The position numbers and the translations under genes are program-made. The notes under the pieces were generated by a model. That model did no database searches and was not told where the DNA came from. It saw only the letters and a list, made by a program, of their open reading frames with translations. 64,000 nt of DNA from an uncultured Candidatus Binatia bacterium (lineage in GTDB: Bacteria > Desulfobacterota > Binatia > HRBIN30). The stretch spans positions 140,243-204,242 of the forward strand of contig CAZHQG010000002.1 in the NCBI GenBank assembly GCA_964534275.1. Direction: 5' to 3'. Positions 1-58,443 of the stretch are shown here, in pieces; position 1 is the stretch's first letter, and the number at the start of each line of letters is the position of its first letter.

Positions 1-507
1 GGCTCGCTGATCTCCGACCTCGTGTTGCGGCTTCATGCGGTGGATGCGGGCGAACACGCCGATTTTTTCGAGCGCCAACGTGCCGCACTGCTCGTGTACT
101 TGGAGTACCTGCGTGCCAATCCCACGTATGTTCGTCTGGCCGACGAGATCAAGCTTTACGCTCCTGATCTCTACCGCCGAGCGGTGGCGAGCTGGGTGGA
201 TCGTATGGCAGAGCGCATCCGCGCCGGTATCCGGGAAGGCAGCGTGCGTCCGATGAGTGAAGCCGAAATTACAGCGCAGGCTCACTTGCTGTTGGGGGCG
301 CGTCACTTCCTCGAGCAAATGTTGGAAACGAGTGACGGGCTCGACGATGCGGCCATCGTCGACGCTTACATCTCGCTGCTGCGCGACGGGCTGGCGCGGC
401 GCGAGAGGGGCGCCCGCTGGGTACGTGGTTCGGCGAAGGCCGCCACGCAGTCCAACCAACGGCAAGCAAGACGCCGCGCGCACGAAAAGAAAGGGGTGGG
501 TCGATGA
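1..507 (+). CDS. TetR-family transcriptional regulator, C-terminal ligand-binding part (5' end lies outside the window)
   Basis: Open frame runs from window edge to a stop at 505-507. The helical, TetR_C-like composition (LLVYLEYLRANP...HLLLGARHFLEQ) is typical of TetR effector domains. The stop overlaps the next ATG in an ATGA arrangement. Confidence 0.55.
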   Translation, partial: GSLISDLVLRLHAVDAGEHADFFERQRAALLVYLEYLRANPTYVRLADEIKLYAPDLYRRAVASWVDRMAERIRAGIREGSVRPMSEAEITAQAHLLLGARHFLEQMLETSDGLDDAAIVDAYISLLRDGLARRERGARWVRGSAKAATQSNQRQARRRAHEKKGVGR

Positions 508-1985
508 CTGCGAGCACTGGCGGTCGTTCTGCTCGTTCGGGAGAGCTTCGGTTCGTCATCATCGGGGCAGGAATGTCTGGGATCCTGAGCGCCATCAAGC
601 TGCGCGAAGCCGGCTTTCGTGACGTCGTGATTTACGAAAAGGCCGATCGACTTGGCGGCACGTGGCGCGACAACACCTACCCAGGGCTCACGTGCGACGT
701 ACCGTCGCACCTGTATTCGTACTCGTTTGCCTTGAATCCCGATTGGACCCATCGCTTTTCGCCTGGGCCGGAGATCCAGGCCTACTTCGAGAACGTGGCG
801 CGGAAGTTCGGCGTAGATGCGTTGATCCGGTACCGAAAAGAGGTCGTCCGGTGCGAGCACTCGAACGGCGGCTGGAAGCTCACGATGAGCGACGGCTCGC
901 AGGACGAGGCAGACTTCATCATTGCCGCCAGCGGCGTGCTCCACCACCCTGCATATCCGGATATTCCCGGACTCGATCGCTTTGGCGGCCCTGCGTTCCA
1001 CAGTGCACGCTGGGATCACTCCGTGCCCCTGTCGGGTCGCCGGGTTGGCGTGGTCGGAACAGGCTCGAGTGCCATCCAAATTGTCGGAGCCATTGTCGAT
1101 CAAGTGGCCGAGCTGCGGCTCTTTCAGCGGACGCCACAGTGGATCATGCCGATGAGCAATCCCCCGTACACCGAGGCCGAGAAACAGGAGTTTCGGGAGC
1201 ATCCAGAGCGGATCGTGCAGCTCCGCGAAGAGATCTCGCGCATGTTTGTCGACACGTTTGCCAACCACCTGGCGGACGTGAACTCCCCGCAACTGCAAGC
1301 GATTCACGCGGCGTGCGAGGCTCATCTAGAAAATAGCGTGCGCGACCCAGAACTGCGCGAGAAACTTCGTCCCAACTATCGCGCGGGCTGCAAACGGTTG
1401 ATCCTGTCCGAGAACTTTTACGATGCCATTCAGCGACCCAACGCAAAGTTGGTGACCGAGCCGATCGAGCGCGTCGAAGGGGCGGGCGTGCGCACCCGCG
1501 ACGGCGTTTTGCACGAGCTGGACGTACTGGTTTTGGCAACCGGATTTCGCGTCGATCGCTTCATCCGACCAACAGAGGTGATCGGCCGCGGCGGCGTACG
1601 GCTGGACGATGTTTGGAAAGACACCCCAGCCGCGTATCTTGCCATTTCGGTGCCCGATTTTCCGAACTTCTTCTTGCTGAACGGCCCGAATAGCCCGGTC
1701 GGGAACTTCTCGCTCATCGAAGTGGCGGAGTTGCAGTTCGCCTACATTTTGCAGCTCGTCGAGCTGGTACGTCGCGGCGTGTGCGCGGAACTGAGTGCGT
1801 CGCATGCAGCAATGCGGCGTTTCGATGCGGCGCGGAAACAGCAGGCGGCACGAACGATTTGGGCTAGTGGGTGCCGCAGCTGGTACCTGGACGGCGAGGG
1901 CGTACCCATCGCCTGGCCGTGGCCGTTCGACCGCTTCCGCGAAGAAATGTCCAGGCCGAACTTGGCTGACTTCGACCGGAGATAA
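504..1985 (+). CDS. Type I Baeyer-Villiger / flavin-containing monooxygenase (FAD/NADPH dependent)
   Basis: 493 aa. An N-terminal Rossmann motif IIGAGMSG and a second dinucleotide motif GVVGTGSSA are present. The BVMO fingerprint FxGxxxHxxxW(D/P) is seen as FGGPAFHSARWD. Confidence 0.85.
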   Translation: MTASTGGRSARSGELRFVIIGAGMSGILSAIKLREAGFRDVVIYEKADRLGGTWRDNTYPGLTCDVPSHLYSYSFALNPDWTHRFSPGPEIQAYFENVARKFGVDALIRYRKEVVRCEHSNGGWKLTMSDGSQDEADFIIAASGVLHHPAYPDIPGLDRFGGPAFHSARWDHSVPLSGRRVGVVGTGSSAIQIVGAIVDQVAELRLFQRTPQWIMPMSNPPYTEAEKQEFREHPERIVQLREEISRMFVDTFANHLADVNSPQLQAIHAACEAHLENSVRDPELREKLRPNYRAGCKRLILSENFYDAIQRPNAKLVTEPIERVEGAGVRTRDGVLHELDVLVLATGFRVDRFIRPTEVIGRGGVRLDDVWKDTPAAYLAISVPDFPNFFLLNGPNSPVGNFSLIEVAELQFAYILQLVELVRRGVCAELSASHAAMRRFDAARKQQAARTIWASGCRSWYLDGEGVPIAWPWPFDRFREEMSRPNLADFDRR

Positions 1986-1995
1986 AGGGGGAGCC

Positions 1996-2614
1996 ATGAA
2001 GCGCGAACACTGCTTGATCGAACGCGACGGCCATGGGCTGATCGTCACGCTGAACCGCCCCGAGGCAAAAACGCCCTGAGTGCGGGCATGCTAGCGGGGA
2101 TGTACCGCGCTTGGCGCCTGCTCGACGAGGAGGACGACTTGCGCATGGCGATCCTCACGGGGCAAGGCGATGTGTTCTGTGCTGGTGCCGACTTCAAGTC
2201 GATGGGTGCGGGAGAAATGGACGAAGAATTCATGAAGCTCATGTCCGAGATTCCTGATATCCATTGGCAGGCACTGCTTCGACACAACCGTCCGATGCAG
2301 CCAATCGTCGCGGCGGGGGAAGGTTCCGCGGTCGCGGGCGGCACCGAGACCCTGCTCGGCACCGACATTCGCGATGCGGCGGAGGAGGCCGTGTTCGAAA
2401 TCACCGAAGCGCGGAAGATTGCAGCCACGATTTGTGAAAACGCTCCACGTCGGTGCGCGCGCTCGTGCGGATGCTGCGCGAGGTGGGCGAAAGTTCCGGC
2501 GAGGCCCTTGCGAAAGAGCTCGAAGTCGGCAGCCCCATCTTCGGGACCCCCGACGCGCGCGAAGGCATGAAAGCGTTCGCGGAGAAGCGCAAACCCATCG
2601 ACAAGGACGGGTGA
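1996..2614 (+). pseudogene. Enoyl-CoA hydratase/isomerase (crotonase) disrupted by two +/-1 frameshifts
   Basis: Crotonase homology is split across three frames. Frame 1 (1996-2079) reads MKREHCLIERDGHGLIVTLNRPEAK. Frame 0 (2088-~2440) reads AILTGQGDVFCAGADFKSM...AGGTETLLGTDIR. Frame 2 (2441-2614) reads SVRALVRMLREVGESS...FGTPDAREGMKAFAEKRKPIDKDG*. The first shift is at the A5 homopolymer 2067-2071. The second is near 2441-2455. Confidence 0.6.
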
Positions 2615-2616
2615 CA

Positions 2617-4104
2617 ATGGCAGAGTTCCCGGCAAACGTCCCGGTGATTGTGGGCGTTGGTTTTCACCAAGAGCGCAACGAAGATCCCACTCAGTGCTCC
2701 GAGCCTTACCAGCTCATGGTGCAGGCAGCACGAGCGGCCGCTGCCGACGCAGGGTCGGAGGAGCTCCTGCGGCGCATCGAGTCGGTGTCGGTGCCGCGCG
2801 GGATGTGGCAATACCGGAATCCCGGTAGGCTCGTTGCCGAAGCACTTGGATGCTCGAGGGCAAAGAGCATCTTGTCGGACTTAGGAGTTCTGCAGCTCAC
2901 CCTGCTGAGCGAACTCTGTCAGTCGATTGCAGCAGGCGAACGTACGGTTGGCCTGGTCACGGGAGGGGAGGCCCAGTTTCGTGCCCTGCGGGCCATGATC
3001 ACGCAGCAGCGGGTGACGGATACTGAGCAGCCCGAGGAGACTCCAGCGCCGGATGTTCACCTTACCTCCTCCGACCCCTTTTGCAGCGATCTCGAGAGCC
3101 GGCGTGGTCTGAATCTGCCCGTGGAGTACTTTGCGATCATCGAATCGGCCTTGCGCTGTCACCAAGGCCTGAGCGTGGATGGGCACCGGGACCGTTTAGC
3201 TGCGCTGTACAGCTCGTTTAGCGAGGTCGCAGCCGGCAACCCGCACGCGTGGCGGCGCGAAATGGTAAGCCCCGAGGACATTCGCAATCCCTCCGCCAAG
3301 AATCCCATGCTGGCATTTCCCTACACGAAGAGACACTGCAGCCAGTGGAACGTAAACCGCGGGGTGGCCATTCTCGTTTGTTCGCTCCGCGTTGCCCAGG
3401 AACTTGGCCTCGACTCTTCGCGCTGGGTTTTCCCCGTTGTCACGGTCGAGTCGAAGCACGTAGTCGTGCTGGCTCAGAAAAGAACGCTGCATAGCCAGCC
3501 CGGAACGGTCCTGTGCGGACAGCGAGCCTTTGCTCTTGCAGGCATCACCCCTGCCGATCTGACCGCCGCAGAGCTTTACAGTTGCTTCCCGGCGGCAATT
3601 CAGTCGTTTGCGCTCGACCTCGGGCTGGATGGTGTCTGCCCCCTGACTGTCACTGGTTCCATGGCGTTTGCTGGGGGTCCGTACAACCATTTCAGCCTCG
3701 AGGGAGTGGCGAGAATGGTGGAGGTGCTCCGTGCTGGCGGTAGACCGCACCGGTTCGGGCTCGTCTCGAACTTGAGCGGCATCTTTGGAAAGCAAGCTTG
3801 CGTCTTACTTTCGGACGTCCCCAGGCCGGGTGGCTACGCGTACGAGGACGTCACCGAGGCGGTTGCCAAGATCGACCAACCTGTCCCGCTGAACGAGCAG
3901 TATACCGGGCCAGCGACCATCGTCGGCTACACGGTCGTGTTCCAACGGGACCATCCGTCACACGCGATCGCCATTTGCGATACGCCGGCTGGCGAGCGAA
4001 CGGTTGCGAAGAGCGAGGATGCGTTCTTGCTCGAAGCAATGATGCGCGAAGAGTTTTGCGGCCGCCCGGCCGAGATCTCGGCAGGCGGAGGCTTCCGATT
4101 GTAA
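2617..4104 (+). CDS. SCP-x/Ltp-type thiolase-like protein fused to a C-terminal OB-fold (DUF35-like) domain
   Basis: ATG at 2617 (MAEFPANVPVIVGVGF) follows the hydratase stop. The thiolase-like core is about 380 aa. The C-terminal ~80 aa (TGPATIVGYTVVF...AIAICDTPAGERTVAKSEDAFLLEAMMREE) resemble the DUF35 OB fold and lack the zinc ribbon. The upstream part of the listed 2374-4104 ORF is the out-of-frame hydratase 3' end. Confidence 0.75.
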   Translation: MAEFPANVPVIVGVGFHQERNEDPTQCSEPYQLMVQAARAAAADAGSEELLRRIESVSVPRGMWQYRNPGRLVAEALGCSRAKSILSDLGVLQLTLLSELCQSIAAGERTVGLVTGGEAQFRALRAMITQQRVTDTEQPEETPAPDVHLTSSDPFCSDLESRRGLNLPVEYFAIIESALRCHQGLSVDGHRDRLAALYSSFSEVAAGNPHAWRREMVSPEDIRNPSAKNPMLAFPYTKRHCSQWNVNRGVAILVCSLRVAQELGLDSSRWVFPVVTVESKHVVVLAQKRTLHSQPGTVLCGQRAFALAGITPADLTAAELYSCFPAAIQSFALDLGLDGVCPLTVTGSMAFAGGPYNHFSLEGVARMVEVLRAGGRPHRFGLVSNLSGIFGKQACVLLSDVPRPGGYAYEDVTEAVAKIDQPVPLNEQYTGPATIVGYTVVFQRDHPSHAIAICDTPAGERTVAKSEDAFLLEAMMREEFCGRPAEISAGGGFRL

Positions 4105-9845: not shown

Positions 9846-11507
9846 ATGCCTGGAAGCCAGAGAATGGAGAGCCCTCGGCCAATCGAAGAAGTGGCCGCGG
9901 ATCTGGGATTGGATGCCAGTGATTTGATGGTCTTTGGTCGGCAAATGGCGAAGGTCGAAGCACACGCCCTCGAGCGCGGTCGGCGTCGTCCGGAAGAGCC
10001 TCGCCTCGTCTTGGTGTCGGGAATTACTCCCACTGCGGCGGGCGAAGGAAAAACGACCGTGAGTATTGGACTTGCCGACGCATTTCGTTTGCTGGACAAG
10101 TCTGTGTGCCTTGCGCTCCGGGAGCCTTCGCTCGGACCATGCTTTGGGGTGAAGGGCGGGGGTACAGGAGGTGGTGCAGCGAGCTTGGTGCCGGCAGATC
10201 GCATCAACCTCCACTTTACCGGGGATTTTCACGCGGTCACGGCTGCCCACAACTTGCTTGCTGCGATGGTGGACAACCACGTGTACTTCGGGAACCCGCT
10301 TGGCATCGATCCGCGGCGGGTTACCTGGAAGCGCGTGCTGGACATGAACGATCGCAGCTTGCGTTTCATCGTTACGGGGTTGGGCGGACCAGCCCACGGC
10401 GTTCCACGCGAGGCAGGGTTCGACATCACGGCGGCGTCGGAAGTGATGGCCATGTTGTGTCTGGCGCGGGACGCCGAAGATTTGCGTCAGCGGATCGACC
10501 GCACGCTGGTTGGCTTCACGTACGATGGCGCACCAGTGACCGCCGGCCAGATCCAAGCCACTGGAGCGATGCTGGCATTGCTTCGCGACGCGTTGCTCCC
10601 GAACCTCGTGCAAACACAGGCAGGAACGCCAGCGCTGGTCCATGGCGGGCCGTTCGCCAACATCGCCCACGGCTGCAACAGCATCATCGCGACGCGGCTG
10701 GCGCTCGATTGCGCCGACTGGGTCATCACCGAGGCGGGTTTCGCCTTCGATCTCGGGGCGGAGAAATTCTTCGACATCAAATGTGTCACCGCCGGGTTCG
10801 ATACGGCGGCCGTGGTGCTGGTGACGACCGTGCGGGCGTTAAAACAACACGGAGGCGTAGCGGCAGCAGACCTCGCTCGGCCGAACCCAGCGGCAGTTGC
10901 CAGGGGCTTGCCGAATCTCGACAAGCACGTGGAAAATATCCGCGTGTTTGGCGAGCCTCCTGTGGTGGCGGTCAACCGATTCACGACGGACACCGAAGAG
11001 GAAATCGAGGTCGTACGGCGCCGCTGCGCGGCCCTGGGCGTCCCCATGGCGATCGCCCAACCGTTCGACCGCGGGGGCGAGGGTTGCGTGACATTGGCGC
11101 GCACGGTGATGGCGCACGCGGAAAAACGCAGCAAGCGGTTCCAGCCCCTGTACGACTGGAACGATCCGGTGCCGCAAAAAATTCTTCGTGTCGCGCAAGC
11201 GATGTACGGAGCAAAAGGAGTCCAGTACACCAAAGAAGCAGAGCGCGACTTGGCCCTGATTGGCCGCTATGGGTTTGACAAGTTGCCCGTCTGCTTGGCC
11301 AAAACACCGACCTCGCTTTCCGATGACCCAAAACGCTTAGGCCGTCCCGCGGATTTTGACGTGACCGTTCGTTCCATTCAGCCAGCGACGGGTGCGGGCT
11401 TTCTCGTGGTGTTGCTGGGCGACATTTTGCGCATGCCAGGCCTACCAAAGATTCCCTTGGCAACCAGAATCGATTTGCGCGACGGGAAAATCGTCGGGCT
11501 TGCTTGA
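9846..11507 (+). CDS. fhs: Formate--tetrahydrofolate ligase (formyltetrahydrofolate synthetase)
   Basis: 553 aa. The P-loop region VSGITPTAAGEGKTTVSIGL and the conserved FTHFS core are present. An AGGAGG RBS precedes the start. Confidence 0.95.
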   Translation: MPGSQRMESPRPIEEVAADLGLDASDLMVFGRQMAKVEAHALERGRRRPEEPRLVLVSGITPTAAGEGKTTVSIGLADAFRLLDKSVCLALREPSLGPCFGVKGGGTGGGAASLVPADRINLHFTGDFHAVTAAHNLLAAMVDNHVYFGNPLGIDPRRVTWKRVLDMNDRSLRFIVTGLGGPAHGVPREAGFDITAASEVMAMLCLARDAEDLRQRIDRTLVGFTYDGAPVTAGQIQATGAMLALLRDALLPNLVQTQAGTPALVHGGPFANIAHGCNSIIATRLALDCADWVITEAGFAFDLGAEKFFDIKCVTAGFDTAAVVLVTTVRALKQHGGVAAADLARPNPAAVARGLPNLDKHVENIRVFGEPPVVAVNRFTTDTEEEIEVVRRRCAALGVPMAIAQPFDRGGEGCVTLARTVMAHAEKRSKRFQPLYDWNDPVPQKILRVAQAMYGAKGVQYTKEAERDLALIGRYGFDKLPVCLAKTPTSLSDDPKRLGRPADFDVTVRSIQPATGAGFLVVLLGDILRMPGLPKIPLATRIDLRDGKIVGLA

Positions 11508-11536
11508 ACGCTCTGGCTTCGGGCTGGAAGCGAACG

Positions 11537-12478
11537 TTAGCTCTGGACCGCAGCGCAAAGCGTTTCGGTGGCCCGCTCACGTGCTTGATCGATCGCCCGC
11601 TCCCAGGCAGCGGCATCGCGCGTATCGCTGCCTGGAGGAAACAGCAAAGCGCGAGAAGAGTTCACCACGCCGCCTTCGCGTCCGCGTGGGCCCTGCACGA
11701 AGCCTGCTACAGCAGCTTGCGCGCCGGCTCCTTGGGCACCGAAGCCAGGAACAAGGAACAAGGCGCTGGGTAAAAGCTCGCGGATGCGTTGGGCATCGGC
11801 GGAGTAAGCAGCGCCCACGACAGCCCCCAGGGCAGACCACCCGAGCGAACCACGCAAGCGTTCGGCGAGCGGGTTCAGTGCCTTGGCGACGCGCTCGAAC
11901 AGCCGCTCGCCCGCTGACGCGAACTCCTGGAAGTCACGTGCGCCCGGGTTGCTGGTTTTCACGAGCACGAATACTCCGCCGCCAAATTGCTCCGCCGCTG
12001 CGGTGAACGGCTCGAGGGAGTCGATCCCGAGATACGGGTTCACGGTCATGGCCTCGCAGTACAATGGCGAGGTTGGCGCCAAGTAGGCAGCGTAAGCGGC
12101 GGCCGTGGAATCGATGTCGCCCCGTTTTGCGTCGAGGATCACGAGCATCCCGAGTGCCCGCGCATAGGCCACCGTTCGTTCCAGCACAGCAATGCCTCGG
12201 GCCCCCATTTGCTCGAAAAAAGCGATTTGCGGTTTGACCACCGCAACGTGACCTTGGTAGCGGTCTAGCACCGCGCGGAGGAACGCTTCCACTTGCGGAG
12301 GAGTTTGAGGGTCGTTGGCAGTCATGGTACCGCGGCGGAAGAGGGGCGGCATGAGCGGCAGGTGTGGGTCCAAACCCAAGCACAACGGGTGGCCGAGGGT
12401 GCGCGTGCGCTCGATCAAACGATCGGCAAAGTGCAGCGGCGGTCCGCTGCGTTCCTTCGCTGTGTTGTTGGCGTCCAC
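11537..12478 (-). CDS. pyrF: Orotidine 5'-phosphate decarboxylase, long (type 2) form
   Basis: The active-site motif VILDAKRGDI is present. 313 aa is consistent with type-2 PyrF. Confidence 0.8.
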   Translation of the reverse strand: MDANNTAKERSGPPLHFADRLIERTRTLGHPLCLGLDPHLPLMPPLFRRGTMTANDPQTPPQVEAFLRAVLDRYQGHVAVVKPQIAFFEQMGARGIAVLERTVAYARALGMLVILDAKRGDIDSTAAAYAAYLAPTSPLYCEAMTVNPYLGIDSLEPFTAAAEQFGGGVFVLVKTSNPGARDFQEFASAGERLFERVAKALNPLAERLRGSLGWSALGAVVGAAYSADAQRIRELLPSALFLVPGFGAQGAGAQAAVAGFVQGPRGREGGVVNSSRALLFPPGSDTRDAAAWERAIDQARERATETLCAAVQS

Positions 12479-22968: not shown

Positions 22969-25056
22969 TTAGCCGATCGACAAGTTGGGTACCGGAAGTC
23001 CTGGCTGGGGCAGTAACTTTGCGAGCGCGTCGGGCTGGGTCACCGGCGGCGAGCACGTAAACCCGCAGCACACGTAGGCTACCGCTTCAGTCTGTGGGGG
23101 CAGTGGTTTGTCGCGTACGAGCGGCAACGGGCCCTTGGGATCCTCCGGGGATGCGACGACGAGTACCCGGTGAGGTACGTAATGCTGTCGGACGAGCCGA
23201 ACGAGATCTTGTGCGGCTCCGCGGCGGGATTCCAGAATCACGGCGGTCCACGGTTGAACCACGTCGAACAGCGCTGCACACAGCATGCTTGGGAATCCCG
23301 AAGGCTGCGCGTGCATGGTGGCGGCGTAGGTTTCCAGCACCTTGCGGGCGTGTCGTTCGTAGGTCGGATTGCCGGTCAGGTGCGCCAGACGAAGCAGTGC
23401 TCGGCAGGCAACCGAGTTTCCCGATGGGGTGGCGCCGTCGAATACGGGCTTGCTGCGGACCACGAGTGCCTCTTGCCGGTCGCTGGTGAAGAAAAAGCCC
23501 GCGCTTGCGGAGTCCCAAAAGTGTGCCAGTAGCTCGTCGCCTAGCAAGCGGGCGCGCTCGAGGTCGCGGCTTTGTTGCAGCGCCTCGAACGAGTCCAAAT
23601 ATGCCTGCAGCAGGAACGAAACGTCCTCCAAGTGCGCTGGGTACTTGGCGATGCCTTGCGCGTAGGTACTCAAGAGTCCCGTGCTTGGCCACAACCGGTC
23701 CTCGAGGAACTGCAAGGTCTGACGCACGACTTCTGCGTACATGGGGTCGCCAAGAACTTCGGCAGCGAGCGCAAACGCCGACACCGCGAGGCCGTTCCAG
23801 GCGGTGAGGATTTTATCGTCCAGCGCAGGTGGTACGCGCCGTTGGCGCGCGAGGAACAGTTTCTCCCGAGCCTCCTGAAGTGCCACAGTCACTTCGTCGA
23901 CAGGTCGTTGGTAGAGCTTTGCCAACTGCTCCGCCGCGAGGGTTCGATGGAGCACGCTCTGGCCATGTTCGAAGTTGCCTTGGTCGGTGACATCCCAGTA
24001 TCGGCAGGCGAGCTCTGCAAGATCAGGTTCGAGCACGTCGCGCACTTGCTGCGGGTTCCAGACGTAAAACTTCCCTTCCTCTCCTTCGCTGTCCGCGTCT
24101 TGGGAAGAATAAAACCCGCCTTCGGGGGAACGAAGCTCGCGCAGCATGTAGGCCAGTGTTTCGCGCGCAACTTGGGCAAACTCAGCCCGGTGCGTCGCCT
24201 GGTACGCAAACAGGTACAGGCGGGCGAGAAGCGCGTTGTCGTAAAGCATTTTTTCGAAGTGGGGTACGAGCCAGCGCTCATCGACCGAGTAGCGGTGAAA
24301 CCCTCCGCCAAGTTGGTCGTAAATTCCGCCCCAGGCCATCTTGTGCAAGGTGTGCTCGACCATGTCGCGAAACCGCGGGTCGCCCGACACCGCGAAGAAC
24401 TGCAGGAAGTACTCGAAGATGGAGGCGTTGGGGAACTTCGGCGCTCCTTGCAGGCCCCCGTGGACAGGGTCGTAGAGCGATGCCAGGCGATGCGCCGCGT
24501 GATCGAGCAACGCGCGGTCGCACGGAGTTGTGGATGCTTCGGGAGTTTCCACCCGTTGCAGGGCTGCAATCAGTTGCGCCGCAGTTTGGTCGATCTCGTG
24601 CCGTTTCTCGCGATACGCTTGCGCTACGGCCTGCAAGACTTTGCGAAAGGCTGGCAAGCCGTGGCGGTCTTCCGGTGGAAAATACGTTCCCCCGTAAAAC
24701 GGGCGCCCGTCAGGGCACAAGAAGACGGTCAGCGGCCATCCCCCTCGGCCGGTCAATAGTTGCACAGCGGTCATGTACACATGGTCCACATCTGGGCGCT
24801 CCTCGCGGTCCACTTTCACGTTCACGAACAGCGTGTTCATCAGCCGGGCGGTTTCCGGGTCCTCGAAAGACTCCCGCTCCATGACGTGGCACCAGTGACA
24901 CGCAGCGTAGCCAATGCTGAGCAGGATGGGTTTGTCCTCCCGGCGTGCTCGCTCGAACGCTTCGGGGCCCCAGGGATACCAGTCGACCGGATTGTGCGCG
25001 TGTTGCCGGAGATAAGGGCTCGTCTCACGAGCTAAGCGGTTGGTGTGCGTTGCCAT
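22969..25056 (-). CDS. Thioredoxin-domain protein of the YyaL/DUF255 family (N-acyl-glucosamine-epimerase-like (alpha/alpha)6 C-terminal domain)
   Basis: ATG at 25056 ([59 protein letters not shown]). This N-terminal signature is characteristic of the family. Confidence 0.85.
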
Positions 25057-25549
25057 CGTGTCTCCTTCCACGGGTCGGGTGCCCGGTTCGTCCAACGTTC
25101 GCAGCTTGGGGGAACAAAGCAAGACCGCATCCTTCGCCTTGCGGGCCGCCCGCGGGGATCGTCGGCCCCCACATGGCGCCGGGTAAAGTACTTCCTCATC
25201 CGACCGGAGAGCGGACCGAACGAGGAGAGGATTGTCGGGTTGCCGCCGTGGCAGCTCCGCCCCGAGGATTGGTGAGACGGCTGATTCTGGCCTGCGTTCG
25301 CTGTCGGCTGCCCACAAACGCCCGGCTCAACAACGGCGCTGTTGGTGTGTGGCGACGGCGGGGCTGCCAGGTTCCCGTGCTGTTTTCGAGAAGAAGCCAG
25401 GCACGAGGCGAAGGAATAGCCTGGATCGAGGCTTACGAATCCGGGTGGATGGACGGTCCGTTCGGTGCGGTCGCGGCAGTCTTGCCCCCGGTCTGGCATT
25501 TGCGCGTCGGGTGTGGCGATAAGGAGCGTATTGGAGGTCGGAGTTCGCC

Positions 25550-27208
25550 GTGGGATTTCGTCCACCACCAGCAATCGAGCCAGCAACCGCTGCGTTTTGG
25601 CATGCTTGCCGCGACGGCCGGCTCGAATTCCGTTTTTGCCCGCGTTGTGAGTGGTTCATTCACCCGCCGCGGCCGATCTGCCCGCAATGTCACAGGACAG
25701 AGCTCGAGTCCCGGCAAGTGTCGGGGCGGGGGACGGTGCACACCTACACCGTGAACCACAAGGCGTGGTTTCCTGGGCAGGAAGTGCCGTACATCATCGC
25801 GATCGTCGAACTGGAGGAGCAACCCGGCTTGCGGCTCCTCAGCAACATTGTCGAGTGTGCCCCCGAGGAAGTGCAGATCGGCATGCCGGTACGTGTGCAG
25901 TTCGAAGTGTTGAACGACGAGGTGGCTTTACCGGTGTTCGTTCCTGACTTGGAGCGCGCGAGCCCGCGGGAGGGCACTCAAGAACCGCGTCGTGTCGAGG
26001 TCCGGCCGGAAAGTCCGTCAGTCGTTTCCTCAGGCGAGCCGTTGGAGCGGCGCGCCGTGCTCTCCGGTGTTGGCCAATCGGCCATCGGTCGTCGTCTCTT
26101 TCGCGACGAGCTCGACCTCACCTGCGAAGCAGCGCTTCGAGCGATTGCCGACGCGGGGCTGCGGGTTTCCGACATCGATGGGATCGCTGCCTACCCCGGA
26201 CCAGTCACGAACGTGCCCGGTTTTTCCGGTCCCAGCATTTACGACGTACAGGATGCGCTCGGACTCTCGGTGCGCTGGCACTTGTCCGGAATGGAGGGCC
26301 CGGGCCAAATCATGCCCATCATTGCGGCAGCGTTGGCCGTGGCCAGTGGGCTGGCGCGACACGTGTTGGTGTATCGTACCGTTACCGAGGCCACCGCGGC
26401 AGCCGACACCGGGCGCCGTGGGATTGGTGCTGGCGCGCGAGAAATCACCGGCTTTGCTGCCTTTCTCGTACCGTTTGGAGCGATGTCGGCAGCCAATTGG
26501 CTTGCGCTGTACGCGCGCCGCCACATGCACGTGTATGGAACCCAGCGCAAGCACTTAGGCGCGATCGCGCTGACTGCCCGCGAACATGCTCGCTTGAACC
26601 CGGCTGCCGTCTACCGCGAGCCGCTCACGTGGGACGACTACTGGCAAGCGCGCATGGTGAGCGACCCGTTTTGCTTGTTCGATTGCGACGCTCCGGTCGA
26701 TGGCTCCACGGCCGTGATTGTGTCCTCTGCGGAGTGTGTGCGCGACCTGGCCAAGCCAGCAGTGCGCATCGAAGCTGTGGGGACCGCGCTCGGCAAACGC
26801 CCGTTGTGGGATCAGTGGCCGGACTTGACCACGATGGCAGCGCACGATTCCGCCCGGCATCTGTGGAGTCGTACAACCCTGAGACCGAACGACGTGGATA
26901 CCGCCCAGCTTTACGACGGGTTTTCGTTCCTCACGTTGTCTTGGCTCGAAGCCCTCGGATTTTGCGGACCGGGCGAAAGCGGACCCTTCGTCGAAGAAGG
27001 TCACATCCGGCTGGGCGGGAGGCTTCCACTGAACACGTGGGGTGGACAACTCTCGGGCGGCCGCTTGCACGGTTTTGGATTCGTGGCTGAAGCAATTCGA
27101 CAAATCCGCGGCGAGTGCGGTGAGCGCCAAGTGCCGGACTGCGAAGTTGCCGTGGTGGCAGTCGGAGGAGGTCCCGTTGCCGGCTGCATGCTCCTGACGC
27201 GTGCGTAA
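25550..27208 (+). CDS. Fusion protein: N-terminal DUF35 (zinc ribbon plus OB fold) joined to a C-terminal SCP-x/Ltp-type thiolase-like domain
   Basis: GTG start with GGAGG RBS. Residues ~1-130 carry the zinc ribbon CPRCEW...CPQC and the OB fold (GRGTVHTYTV...PYIIAIVELEE). A linker is followed by the thiolase-like domain (AVLSGVGQS...AVGGGPVAG). Confidence 0.8.
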   Translation: MGFRPPPAIEPATAAFWHACRDGRLEFRFCPRCEWFIHPPRPICPQCHRTELESRQVSGRGTVHTYTVNHKAWFPGQEVPYIIAIVELEEQPGLRLLSNIVECAPEEVQIGMPVRVQFEVLNDEVALPVFVPDLERASPREGTQEPRRVEVRPESPSVVSSGEPLERRAVLSGVGQSAIGRRLFRDELDLTCEAALRAIADAGLRVSDIDGIAAYPGPVTNVPGFSGPSIYDVQDALGLSVRWHLSGMEGPGQIMPIIAAALAVASGLARHVLVYRTVTEATAAADTGRRGIGAGAREITGFAAFLVPFGAMSAANWLALYARRHMHVYGTQRKHLGAIALTAREHARLNPAAVYREPLTWDDYWQARMVSDPFCLFDCDAPVDGSTAVIVSSAECVRDLAKPAVRIEAVGTALGKRPLWDQWPDLTTMAAHDSARHLWSRTTLRPNDVDTAQLYDGFSFLTLSWLEALGFCGPGESGPFVEEGHIRLGGRLPLNTWGGQLSGGRLHGFGFVAEAIRQIRGECGERQVPDCEVAVVAVGGGPVAGCMLLTRA

Positions 27209-27340: not shown

Positions 27341-28423
27341 TTAGGAGGGCCTCTTTGCGGAGCGCTCTGCTGGGGGCACAATGCGCAAGCGCGGCCGGTA
27401 GGACGCGTCGCGTAAGAGATAAAAGATCCCGCCAGAAAGCGTGGGCGCTTCCGCGACCCAGAATCCAAGGGCAGCCGAAAGAATCGAGCTTTCGAGGCCG
27501 ATGCGGTGTGCAAGCATCAACGCTTGGACGATCTCCCGCACACCCTCGCCGGCGATGGTAAACGGGCTAATGACCGTGGCAAAAATCTGGATCGTCGATC
27601 CAAAAATCACTTCCCAAAACTCGGCGTGGTGAGCCCCAACTGCAATGGCGGTAAGGAAATACGTGACAGCGGTGAAAAAATGCACCCCGAAGCTCAGTGC
27701 GGCGGCCGCGACGAGTCGGGCCTTTTGATCGCGGTAGGCCGCCGCGGCTCCGTGCAGGCGTTCCACGAAGTTGCCGATTCGTACGCGCCGGAGTTGTGGC
27801 GCCCAGTCCAAGAACCACAGCAACCAGCGCGGATGAAGTAAAATGGCGAAAAATCCTACGCAAACGAACGCGGCGAGGGGAATGGTCAGCCAGCCCACCA
27901 TCGCGGCACGTTCTCCGAGAATCGTGTGGCCGAGGGGGAACGTGACGAGAAAGCACAGGAAAATACCGACGATTCCGAGGCCCTTTTCGATCGCGGTTGC
28001 TGCTGCGGCCTCGACCGTGCGCCCGCTAAAGCGTGCGGCATCGTAGAGCTTGTAGCCGTCGAGCCCGAGCGTCGAGGGCAGGAAGGTGCCGAGGAAACGG
28101 CCAATCAAGAACGTGGTGAACACGTGCCACAGGGGAAAGTACAAGCCTTGCCCCCGGAGTAACACGTTCCAGCGCAGCATCGAACAGGCCATGCCACACA
28201 TCCGCACGACAAACGCCAAAAGGGCGAAGCGCCAGAATACCCCGGTGTCGATGCGAGGCAGGTAGTCGAGGATTGCTCGGAGGGCAGAAACACGTGCGCC
28301 GTCGCTCGTTTCTACTGGGTGCTGCAGCAGCAGGTAAAATGCCGCTACAGTAACGCCGCACTTGGCAGCAAAGGAAAGACTCGTGCGCGCCCAGCTGCGT
28401 TCCGCGCTTGCAGGGGTGGACAA
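27341..28423 (-). CDS. Polytopic membrane protein of the flippase-like / lysylphosphatidylglycerol-synthase-TM-region (UPF0104) family
   Basis: 360 aa with about 8 predicted TM helices. The pattern matches the LPG_synthase_TM/flippase-like domain. It is the last gene of a minus-strand cluster. Confidence 0.65.
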   Translation of the reverse strand: MSTPASAERSWARTSLSFAAKCGVTVAAFYLLLQHPVETSDGARVSALRAILDYLPRIDTGVFWRFALLAFVVRMCGMACSMLRWNVLLRGQGLYFPLWHVFTTFLIGRFLGTFLPSTLGLDGYKLYDAARFSGRTVEAAAATAIEKGLGIVGIFLCFLVTFPLGHTILGERAAMVGWLTIPLAAFVCVGFFAILLHPRWLLWFLDWAPQLRRVRIGNFVERLHGAAAAYRDQKARLVAAAALSFGVHFFTAVTYFLTAIAVGAHHAEFWEVIFGSTIQIFATVISPFTIAGEGVREIVQALMLAHRIGLESSILSAALGFWVAEAPTLSGGIFYLLRDASYRPRLRIVPPAERSAKRPS

Positions 28424-58354: not shown

Positions 58355-58443
58355 CGGAGAGGGAGGGATTCGAACCCTCGGTAGAGTTTTAGCCCTACAC
58401 ACGCTTAGCAGGCGTGCGCCTTCGACCTCTCGGCCACCTCTCC
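58355..58443 (-). tRNA. tRNA-Ser (anticodon GCU), type II with long variable arm; CCA not encoded
   Basis: The reverse complement reads GGAGAGGTGGCCGAGAGGTCGAAGGCGCACGCCTGCTAAGCGTGTGTAGGGCTAAAACTCTACCGAGGGTTCGAATCCCTCCCTCTCCG. The acceptor stem is 7 bp. The anticodon loop is CTGCTAA. The T-loop is GGTTCGAATCC. Confidence 0.85.

Follow-up and report, generated by a model that had tools for sequence, protein, structure and literature searches.

A Candidatus Binatia gene coding for DUF35 fused to a thiolase-like domain: a putative single-chain acyl-CoA C-C lyase

The gene at 25550..27208 (plus strand) of the window, the 64,000-nucleotide stretch of Candidatus Binatia DNA that was analysed, codes for a 552 aa protein (plus stop) in which DUF35 is joined to a thiolase-like domain. 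It was delimited with the ORF list, Pfam, NCBIfam and PDB matches and homologue clusters. The reading frame opens with GTG and has no internal stops. A Shine-Dalgarno-like GGAGGT can be read from the sequence at 25534..25539 (plus strand), 10 nt 5' of the GTG. The homologues carry the same N-terminus, MGFRP(P/L)PA(I/L)EP, as the 552-aa protein, which supports the GTG at 25550 as the start.

The gene stands alone and is divergent from the YyaL gene, as the earlier note had described. The YyaL/DUF255 gene, located on the minus strand, was given a start at 25056 on the basis of its Pfam match and the lengths of its homologues, so the spacer in the ORF list measures 493 bp (25057..25549). The gene on the 3' side (27341-28423) lies on the strand opposite to the fusion gene. 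The neighbours in the window are housekeeping genes (SLT, P5C reductase, GGT, class II aldolase, YyaL, LPG_synthase_TM-like and LeuA), among which we found no adjacent gene for a MaoC hydratase, an ACAD or an aldehyde dehydrogenase. A frameshifted crotonase reading frame is present elsewhere within the window. We considered a regulatory RNA or another conserved element in the spacer and rejected it: an Rfam search of the 493 bp gave no match at E <= 1, the distance to YyaL varies (493 bp in the window, 240 bp in HR30, 113 bp in L002), and the sequence is unconserved except for a block of about 30 nt adjoining the YyaL start. No sigma-70-like consensus site was found in the 493-bp spacer.

The N-terminal part of the product includes the rubredoxin-like zinc ribbon of DUF35 (aa 17-53, 25598..25708, plus strand), matched by zf-ChsH2 (PF12172; 26.7 bits, cutoff 23.2), and the OB-fold subdomain (aa 55-132, 25712..25945, plus strand), where OB_ChsH2_C (PF01796) matches aa 55-119 with 78.7 bits (cutoff 27.1). 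Both models pass their gathering thresholds, which bears out the complete DUF35 that had been claimed for the N-terminal 130 or so residues. The zinc ribbon reads C30-x2-C33-x10-C44-x2-C47 (CPRCEWFIHPPRPICPQC; Cys4 ligands at nt 25637-25690), as described earlier, and C-x2-C-x10-C-x2-C is the canonical ChsH2-type finger (PMC12329534). All four cysteines are invariant in the 60 homologues of alignment A1. In a PDB sequence search, aa 7-134 matched the ChsH2-DUF35 chain 6OK1_B (E 2.8e-24). By these matches, aa 17-132 are a canonical Cys4 DUF35 with a predicted zinc ribbon and an OB fold, like the solved DUF35 structures.

A linker of 33 aa (aa 133-165, 25946..26044, plus strand), delimited by low pLDDT and unconserved alignment columns, connects the two halves. 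It is rich in Pro, Glu, Ser and Arg, varies in length and sequence among the homologues, is predicted to be disordered (pLDDT 44-54 for residues 140-160) and is missing where relatives have two genes (L011 and L013). For the full-length AF2 model the pTM is 0.88 in spite of the disordered linker, which implies a confident predicted placement of the two domains relative to each other.

The rest of the protein (aa 166-552, 26045..27205, plus strand) is an SCP2/Ltp-type thiolase-like domain according to its 6OK1_A, Foldseek and NCBIfam matches. Pfam places Thiolase_C_1 at aa 421-543 (130 bits, cutoff 28), and aa 168-548 match Ltp2 (6OK1_A) with E 4.7e-62 in the PDB sequence search. The two halves thus have their best matches in 6OK1_A and 6OK1_B, confirming their homology to partners that are normally separate. 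6ok1 is also the top Foldseek match (E 8.6e-36, TM normalised to target 0.85), and SCP2-type thiolase-like structures are in general matched with probability 1.00 and target-normalised TM of 0.79-0.90. NCBIfam scores are far under all curated cutoffs; PRK07855 ("lipid-transfer protein") gave 287 bits, below its cutoff of 469.

The active site departs from that of thiolases. In the alignment to the Pyrococcus furiosus thiolase 7YVY, the Cys of AACASGG, the nucleophile, faces Gly247 (26288..26290, plus strand), which is invariant in A1; CtSal and TcLtp2 likewise have Gly in this position (PMC12329534). The second motif, Y455-D456-G457-F458 (26912..26923, plus strand), was located by gap-free alignment to 6OK1_A; its equivalents are Ltp2 YDHF, Sal YDCY, SLP YDCF and SCP2-thiolase HDCF. 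In gap-free HMMER alignments Y455 corresponds to Ltp2 Tyr294, and G457 to Ltp2 His296 and Sal Cys304. Y455, D456 and G457 are invariant in alignments A1 and A2; 79 of the 88 members of the scanned blastp cluster, which includes a few nearby paralogues, carry YDGF. The third motif, N495-TWGGQLSGG-R505-L-H507-G (27032..27073, plus strand; Arg505 at nt 27062-27064), was located by alignments to 6OK1_A and 7YVY, which are gap-free here and place Arg505 where Ltp2 has Tyr344, Sal has Gln352 and thiolases have the His of GHP. N495, G498, G499, Q500, L501, G504, R505 and G508 do not vary among the relatives, whether fused or not, and the ending GR[LT] occurs in 79 of the 88 scanned proteins. A D378-C-D motif is invariant as well, and H507 nearly so. 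Glu249 and Gln253, located beside Gly247, were also considered as catalytic residues and rejected, being unconserved in the wider family.

All the thiolase catalytic residues are thus replaced: the nucleophilic Cys by Gly247, the acid/base Cys by Gly457 and the GHP His by Arg505. Since all three are absent, "thiolase" is, as far as sequence can tell, only a fold label for aa 166-552, and the protein is predicted not to be a true thiolase. Of the SCP-x/Ltp-type thiolase-like domain named earlier, the fold stands while the thiolase chemistry does not.

More than 120 clusters (at 90% identity), 65-99% identical to the protein, share the architecture of about 550 aa. With the uninterrupted reading frame, this agrees with a single covalent fusion gene and not with two genes split by a stop or a frameshift. 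An artefact in which adjacent DUF35 and thiolase-like genes were merged by assembly or sequencing error could be suspected, as split gene pairs do exist in relatives and the crotonase frame mentioned above is frameshifted. It is very unlikely given the number of independent clusters, and several SRA assemblies, independent of one another, contain sequences of 99% identity, the fusion is continuous in complete RefSeq genomes and plasmids too, and single-ORF fusions account for 69 of the 86 related loci; we consider its chance negligible. The 86 loci were called fused or split from tblastn HSP frames and a stop-codon check. Classing by open stretches was rejected, as off-frame ORFs stay open in high-GC DNA and fusions were over-counted.

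The fused loci belong to Binatia and many Actinomycetota. The single-ORF fusion of DUF35 followed by the thiolase-like domain is present in Mycobacterium, Nocardia, Rhodococcus, Streptomyces, Gordonia, Amycolatopsis, Frankia, Thermomonospora and Acidimicrobiia, so the distribution that the earlier note had asked about shows an architecture not peculiar to the lineage. The two partners are indeed commonly linked, as that note supposed; the linkage is, however, neither universal (L011 and L013, inside the Binatia clade, are genuine two-gene versions) nor lineage-specific. Fusions of DUF35 to thiolase-superfamily domains were already listed in 2010 (PMC2954200), and RefSeq names the fused homologues "OB-fold domain-containing protein". 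The gene is a fairly ordinary lipid-metabolism gene from a family already in the databases under generic names.

Split DUF35-then-thiolase gene pairs are interleaved with the fusions in the tree. In an unfused relative with 55% identity (P0123), DUF35 is encoded by a gene of its own that lies immediately upstream and overlaps by 4 bp, and at L075 two ORFs are in frame with a single stop codon between them. As this gene order exists in close relatives, the fusion most simply would have arisen by loss of the stop/start junction in an adjacent DUF35-then-thiolase-like pair.

The gene at 2617-4104 had been taken for a mirror fusion of the same two domains, a view that the profile searches do not support. 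Its C-terminal barrel matches PF18313 with 36.7-40.9 bits (cutoff 26.1), the protein matches 4EGV (E 4.4e-44), and most of its 120 homologues carry PF18313. By these matches it is a TLP1-type protein, homologous to MsTLP1, with a thiolase-like domain and a PF18313 barrel, and this architecture is no more peculiar to the lineage than the DUF35 fusion. DUF35 was not detected in this barrel by Pfam or HMM profiles, and the DUF35 HMM found no second DUF35 in the 64-kb window. The barrel has no zinc ribbon and appears to be remotely DUF35-like at best.

Homologue loci suggest a catabolic setting; this pathway context is drawn mainly from homologues at 45-50% identity. Near them are genes for ACAD (42 loci), P450 (40), SDR (39), acyl-CoA ligase (24), CoA-transferase (17), thiolase (16), aldehyde dehydrogenase (15) and crotonase (13). 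In actinobacterial homologues the genes around the fusion are those for P450, CoA ligase, ACAD, MaoC/crotonase and aldehyde dehydrogenase. The operon of Rhodococcus pRB98 runs from an AMP-binding gene through P450 to the fusion and on to others, aldehyde dehydrogenase and ACAD among them, and a Streptomyces plasmid operon includes P450, ACAD, CoA ligase, MaoC, crotonase and CaiB genes followed by thiolase and the fusion. A Binatia relative with 73% identity has P450 immediately 3' and ACADs and a CoA-transferase 5'. The set of ACAD, hydratase, aldolase and aldehyde dehydrogenase is the logic of aldolytic cleavage of steroid side chains (PMC12329534). We also looked for a conserved operon partner in Binatia and rejected the idea, as contexts vary there and only the divergent pairing with YyaL recurs (in the window, L089, L087 (HR30) and L002/L003).

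The Tyr that acts as catalytic base in the two characterised thiolase-fold aldolases is kept, as Tyr455. We propose, with confidence and doubt evenly balanced, that the gene codes for a self-contained, probably homodimeric acyl-CoA C-C lyase of the retro-aldol type. It would be a single-chain version of the complexes of a thiolase-like enzyme with a DUF35 helper, dimerising through the thiolase-like domains, while DUF35 would pack on the thiolase-like domain and help to shape the acyl-binding cleft; one polypeptide would in this way reproduce the alpha-beta-beta-alpha assemblies of Ltp2-ChsH2(DUF35) and Sal-Shy(DUF35). The presumed reaction is the cleavage of a beta-hydroxyacyl-CoA to an aldehyde or ketone and a short acyl-CoA. 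With residue roles taken from the Sal paper (PMC12329534), Tyr455 would deprotonate the beta-hydroxyl, the backbone of Gly247 would contact this hydroxyl, and Arg505, with His507, may take over from Ltp2 Tyr344 the task of stabilising the enolate or giving it a proton. As substrate, an acyl-CoA derived from a lipid, branched or cyclic, is probable.

The general acids of the known aldolases, Ltp2 Tyr344 and Sal Cys304, are both missing, and the Sal variants C304A, C304S and C304H are dead (PMC12329534). As neither acid is present, a Tyr/Arg aldolase would be without precedent and might not work in this way. A search of the literature for a YDGF-motif thiolase-like enzyme or for Binatota thiolases returned nothing relevant. 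The predicted active site is distinct from those of Ltp2, Sal, SLP and SCP2-thiolases. A bolder idea, which we hold tentatively and with more doubt than belief, is that the YDGF/Arg505 clade, in its fused form as well as where DUF35 is a separate partner, constitutes a third, hitherto undescribed catalytic solution among thiolase-fold C-C lyases, where a Tyr/Arg (±His) centre replaces Tyr/Tyr (Ltp2) and Tyr/Cys (Sal). Its substrates would be branched or cyclic lipid-CoAs other than steroids, handled by Actinomycetota and Binatia in catabolic clusters linked to P450, and the single chain would be self-sufficient without a hydratase-borne DUF35.

The same residues can be read differently. The invariant Arg, which replaces a neutral acid or oxyanion residue right in the catalytic centre, and the loss of both general acids would also suit other carbanion chemistry on a CoA thioester, such as decarboxylation of a beta-carboxy-acyl-CoA of the malonyl type, or a reaction that cleaves or condenses a carboxylated substrate, with Arg505 binding the carboxylate and Gly457 making room; the related TbSLP does have a weak malonyl-CoA decarboxylase activity (PMC12329534). 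However, Tyr455 and Gly247 are aldolase hallmarks, aldehyde dehydrogenases recur near the homologues and the neighbourhood has no sign of dicarboxylate substrates, and we find this chemistry unlikely. The lost catalytic residues, with neither known general acid in place, could instead mean a non-catalytic acyl-CoA- or lipid-binding "lipid-transfer protein", or an enzyme-recruiting scaffold comparable to the silent TLP1. DUF35 proteins are known to scaffold thiolase/HMGCS and PhlABC complexes (PMC12329534), and MsTLP1 has no thiolase activity (PMC3406046). The residues that in homologues line the active site are nevertheless strictly conserved across phyla at 45-99% identity (Y455-D-G, N495, Q500, R505 and D378-C-D invariant, H507 nearly so), and the homologue genes are located within catabolic operons beside enzymes that call for a step of C-C cleavage, making a non-catalytic role distinctly unlikely in our judgement.

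A genuine degradative or biosynthetic thiolase with its helper fused, similar to BbsAB or the archaeal thiolase/DUF35 complex, is what the database names would imply: the JGI label is "acetyl-CoA acetyltransferase", and NCBIfam models called "acetyl-CoA acetyltransferase" and "thiolase domain-containing protein" match (PRK06158 with 267 bits, and others). The thiolase fold itself, the presence of 7YVY, 7PXP and 6ESQ among the structural neighbours and the SDRs in some homologue operons, as in the bbs pathway, point the same way. Yet every NCBIfam score is under its cutoff, Gly247, Gly457 and Arg505 are invariant in place of Cys, Cys and the GHP His, and Sal and Ltp2, where the nucleophile is likewise replaced by Gly, are incapable of thiolysis (PMC12329534); we regard a true thiolase as highly improbable.

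If the lyase proposal is correct, several thousand proteins labelled "acetyl-CoA acetyltransferase", "thiolase family protein" or "OB-fold domain-containing protein" are misnamed and would be aldolase-like C-C lyases, not thiolases. A one-chain DUF35-aldolase would suit the study of the role of DUF35 and might serve as a biocatalyst scaffold, a motivation already named by those who studied Sal and Ltp2. The interleaving of fused and split forms makes this a clean case, provided by nature, of obligate partners whose genes have repeatedly fused and come apart. For the window itself, the practical outcome is a corrected annotation and no new kind of system.

Among known systems, the SCP2-type thiolases with an obligatory DUF35 partner belong to the same fold class and are structural neighbours of the fusion protein, but they have catalytic Cys residues, consist of separate subunits and are only 24-26% identical to it. 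TLP1 differs in having its barrel at the C-terminus and without a zinc ribbon, and MsTLP1 is monomeric (PMC3406046). The second-best PDB match is 4U4E, a putative thiolase from Sphaerobacter thermophilus (E 1.3e-45). A fused N-terminal DUF35 is found in other subfamilies too (P0157/P0185/P0254 and P0176/P0181). 4U4E and these subfamilies are 33-37% identical to the fusion protein but have other signatures, either YDSF/YDAF with SYTH..MYG, or YDAF/YENF with GEAY(I/V)HG.

The bile-acid C5 side-chain aldolase Sal-Shy(DUF35) of Comamonas testosteroni (9MYR) is about 27% identical. Sal needs Cys304 of its YDCY (Tyr302/Cys304 dyad), while the fusion protein keeps the Tyr and has Gly457; Sal Gln352 stands against Arg505, and the finger of Shy-DUF35 is Cys3His instead of Cys4. 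The best match in sequence and structure for both halves is Ltp2-ChsH2(DUF35), the steroid C3 side-chain aldolase of Thermomonospora curvata (6OK1), where Ltp2 is about 32-34% identical to the fusion protein. It consists of two chains with DUF35 borne on the MaoC hydratase and belongs to a steroid catabolic cluster, whereas the fusion protein is one chain without MaoC, and a steroid gene cluster is absent from the window. The oxyanion-hole His296 and the general acid Tyr344 of Ltp2 are replaced by Gly457 and Arg505, both family-invariant. The two systems share the C-x2-C-x10-C-x2-C zinc finger of DUF35, Gly at the thiolase nucleophile position and the Tyr of the xDxF motif (Tyr294 in Ltp2, Tyr455 here).

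The fusion gene is an uninterrupted reading frame of 552 codons (25550-27208, plus strand). Its GTG start is preceded by a GGAGG Shine-Dalgarno sequence and is supported by the N-terminus MGFRP(P/L)PA(I/L)EP, conserved among the homologues. Pfam matches above gathering score are zf-ChsH2 (aa 17-53), OB_ChsH2_C (aa 55-119) and Thiolase_C_1 (aa 421-543); the NCBIfam "lipid-transfer protein" and "thiolase domain-containing" models span aa 165-550, all scoring far below their curated cutoffs. The zinc ribbon, C30-x2-C33-x10-C44-x2-C47, has the spacing of the canonical Cys4 finger of ChsH2-type DUF35 proteins. Each half independently finds its best PDB sequence match in one chain of a single entry, 6OK1 (the Ltp2-ChsH2 steroid side-chain aldolase of Thermomonospora curvata): chain A for the thiolase-like half (aa 168-548, E 4.7e-62) and chain B for the DUF35 half (aa 7-134, E 2.8e-24). 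Pfam matches, Cys4 spacing and both 6OK1 chains thus bear out the proposed placement of a DUF35 zinc ribbon and OB fold N-terminal to a thiolase-like domain. A hidden stop or frameshift, which would make two genes of the frame, was looked for and the frame is continuous. More than 120 clusters (90% identity level), 65-99% identical, have the same architecture of about 550 aa and are labelled "bacterium HR30", "Candidatus Binatia" or "Deltaproteobacteria" MAGs, and near-identical copies are present in independent SRA assemblies. This is one gene, and the bacterium it comes from belongs to Binatia, near HR30 and KatS3mg077. An AlphaFold2 model built from 60 homologues (mean pLDDT 83, pTM 0.88) shows disorder only in the linker (about aa 133-165) and in some loops. 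Since this pTM was reached in a two-domain chain, we take DUF35 to be confidently packed on the thiolase-like domain in the model.

The earlier note had paired this gene with that at 2617-4104, read as an independent fusion of the same partners in mirror order. By sequence, the 2617-4104 product belongs with the thiolase-like proteins of TLP1 type, with matches to PF18313 (TLP1_add_C), to the PRK08257 models (below cutoff) and to Mycobacterium smegmatis TLP1 (4EGV, E 4.4e-44), and most of its best 120 homologues share the TLP1-type architecture. MsTLP1 is a monomer without thiolase activity, and its C-terminal beta-barrel has six strands in an SSB-like topology (PMC3406046). The C-terminal domain of the 2617-4104 protein has no zinc ribbon, the Pfam DUF35 models do not match it even at E <= 10, and a DUF35 HMM built in this analysis detected neither this domain nor, in a PDB search, 4EGV. 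The barrel of TLP1 may thus be distantly related to the OB domain of DUF35, as a form devoid of the zinc ribbon. The claim of two fusions is at best partly right. Between this gene and a putative flavin monooxygenase gene (504-1985, plus strand) lies an enoyl-CoA hydratase (crotonase) frame (1996-2615, plus strand) broken over three frames by two frameshifts, either a pseudogene or a product of assembly indels. The 493-aa product of 504-1985 has a dinucleotide-binding GAGMSG motif near its N-terminus and reads like a flavin-containing/Baeyer-Villiger-type monooxygenase. Downstream of it come the broken crotonase and the TLP1-type gene, an arrangement that suggests a small cluster for lipid or ketone oxidation about 21 kb from the fusion gene.

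Clustering at 50% identity leaves only three fused clusters close to the fusion protein. The next relatives are unfused proteins of about 390 aa that keep YDGF and GR(L/T)HG; for one of them, P0123, a DUF35 of 134 aa is encoded by a gene of its own just upstream, with a 4-bp overlap, a gene order equal to the domain order of the fusion. Scanning the GTDB species genomes yielded 80 loci. All 86 related loci were classified from their tblastn reading frames and a check for stop codons: 69 carry single-ORF fusions and 16 adjacent DUF35-then-thiolase-like gene pairs, the last being cut by a contig end. The fused form is present in Binatia and widespread in Actinomycetota (Mycobacterium, Mycolicibacterium, Nocardia, Rhodococcus, Gordonia, Streptomyces, Amycolatopsis, Frankia, Thermomonospora echinospora and Acidimicrobiia). 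Both forms are found on RefSeq plasmids, the fused one labelled "OB-fold domain-containing protein", and other fused DUF35-thiolase-like lineages with different motifs exist. Krishna et al., 2010 (PMC2954200), had already listed DUF35 fused to domains of the thiolase superfamily. The architecture is recurrent and known, and covalent linkage is no peculiarity of this lineage.

The thiolase-like domain was placed in a neighbour-joining tree, which was bootstrapped with 60 replicates on 48 taxa. A large actinobacterial clade made up wholly of fusions was recovered in 60/60 replicates, as was a Binatia clade including the fusion gene and the two-gene relatives L011 and L013. A grouping of Binatia with a mostly split Acidimicrobiia/mycobacterial clade, excluding the big fused clade, appeared in 59/60. 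This topology requires a minimum of two events of fusion or fission. In L011 (10001-11568) and L013 (4319-5883), whose thiolase-like parts are 75-79% identical, DUF35 and thiolase-like parts are two genes in different frames; the aligned parts are 14-23 nt apart, where the linker would not fit. Fused and split forms thus coexist among close relatives. In L075, from the gammaproteobacterial MAG UBA7310 (10001-11557), the two ORFs share a frame and a lone stop codon at about aa 132 parts them; this sequence, one mutation short of fusion, shows how readily the junction changes.

As described earlier, the fusion gene stands alone: the DUF255 gene YyaL starts at 25056 on the minus strand, divergently and across a 493-bp spacer, and the next gene downstream runs the other way. 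To the left lie SLT transglycosylase, P5C reductase, gamma-glutamyltranspeptidase, class II aldolase and YyaL genes, to the right those for an LPG_synthase_TM-like protein, an unknown protein, a beta-helix protein and LeuA; these are unrelated housekeeping genes. The divergent pairing recurs in a 99%-identical contig, HR30 (82%) and one 73% relative, with spacers of 113, 240 or 493 bp, and is absent in others. A block of about 30 nt, ACGTTCGCAGC...GAACAAAGCAAG (25094-25126), 40-70 nt ahead of the YyaL start, is kept in HR30 (L087) and locus L002, the remaining spacer being unconserved; the block may be a leader or an operator for YyaL. The window has a GC content of 62.4%, and its only Rfam gathering-level match is an 89-nt tRNA (58355-58443, minus strand).

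Neighbouring genes were clustered across all related loci. Families nearby include acyl-CoA dehydrogenase (ACAD; 42 loci), cytochrome P450 (40), SDR (39), Amidohydrolase_2 (25), acyl-CoA ligase (24), CoA-transferase III (17), classical thiolase (16), aldehyde dehydrogenase (15) and crotonase (13), with an alpha/beta-hydrolase directly downstream in 11. In one Binatia relative the next gene downstream is a P450, with ACADs and a CoA-transferase on the upstream side. Such a set, paralleling steroid side-chain degradation, is expected around an aldolytic step in branched or cyclic lipid-CoA breakdown; this context is family-level, drawn from homologues at 45-73% identity, and is no evidence for the window locus. 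Plasmid pRB98 of Rhodococcus oxybenzonivorans (L090, 6399-14692) carries, in this order, AMP-binding, P450, fusion and further genes including aldehyde dehydrogenase and ACAD; a plasmid of Streptomyces sp. NBC_00080 (L091, 127-10668) carries P450, VOC, ACAD, CoA ligase, MaoC dehydratase, crotonase and CaiB genes, followed by thiolase and after it the fusion. Both are annotated catabolic operons with an aldehyde dehydrogenase nearby, their fused homologue being an "OB-fold domain-containing protein", and are good experimental entry points toward the substrate.

Catalytic residues were mapped through HMMER alignments, gap-free around the catalytic motifs. The nucleophilic Cys of Pyrococcus furiosus thiolase 7YVY (AACASGG) corresponds to Gly247. 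The motif HDCF of SCP2-thiolase, YDHF of Ltp2, YDCY of Sal (bile-acid side-chain aldolase of Comamonas testosteroni) and YDCF of SLP is Y455-D-G457-F here, with Tyr455 at Ltp2 Tyr294 and Gly457 at Ltp2 His296 and Sal Cys304. Arg505 (GGRLHG) takes the place of Ltp2 Tyr344, Sal Gln352 and the His of the thiolase GHP motif. Gly247, Tyr455, Asp456, Gly457, Asn495, Gln500, Arg505 and His507 do not vary among 60 Binatia homologues; across 16 sequences, unfused relatives (44-56% identity) included, all remain invariant except Gly247 and the nearly invariant His507. YDGF and GR(L/T)HG each occur in 79 of 88 proteins of a blastp cluster scanned from the related loci, which also contains a few nearby paralogues.

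Such conservation speaks for a functional active site of its own type, and we found no paper describing it in a literature search. Our best reading, inferred from the residues, is a retro-aldol-type acyl-CoA C-C lyase, in which Tyr455 would act as base and Arg505, alone or together with His507, would stabilise the enolate or protonate it. The chemistry could also be another carbanion reaction, e.g., decarboxylation of a carboxylated CoA ester whose carboxylate Arg505 would hold. Alternatively, the protein could bind its ligand without catalysis, a reading against which the conserved Tyr455, Gly457 and Arg505 speak.

The putative lyase can be set beside the characterised enzymes. In Ltp2, Tyr294 is the base and Tyr344 the acid, Sal operates via Tyr302 and Cys304, and in both a Gly whose backbone touches the substrate hydroxyl replaces the thiolase nucleophile (PMC12329534). 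The fusion gene encodes a new, uncharacterised DUF35-associated thiolase-fold enzyme, whose fused form is widespread and already in databases, and its sole interesting feature is the active-site signature. The protein has none of the thiolase catalytic residues; it shares the Gly (Gly247) and the Tyr (Tyr455) with Ltp2 and Sal but has neither of their known general acids, so that Gly247 / Tyr455-Asp-Gly457 / Arg505 sets it apart from thiolases and from both known thiolase-fold aldolases.
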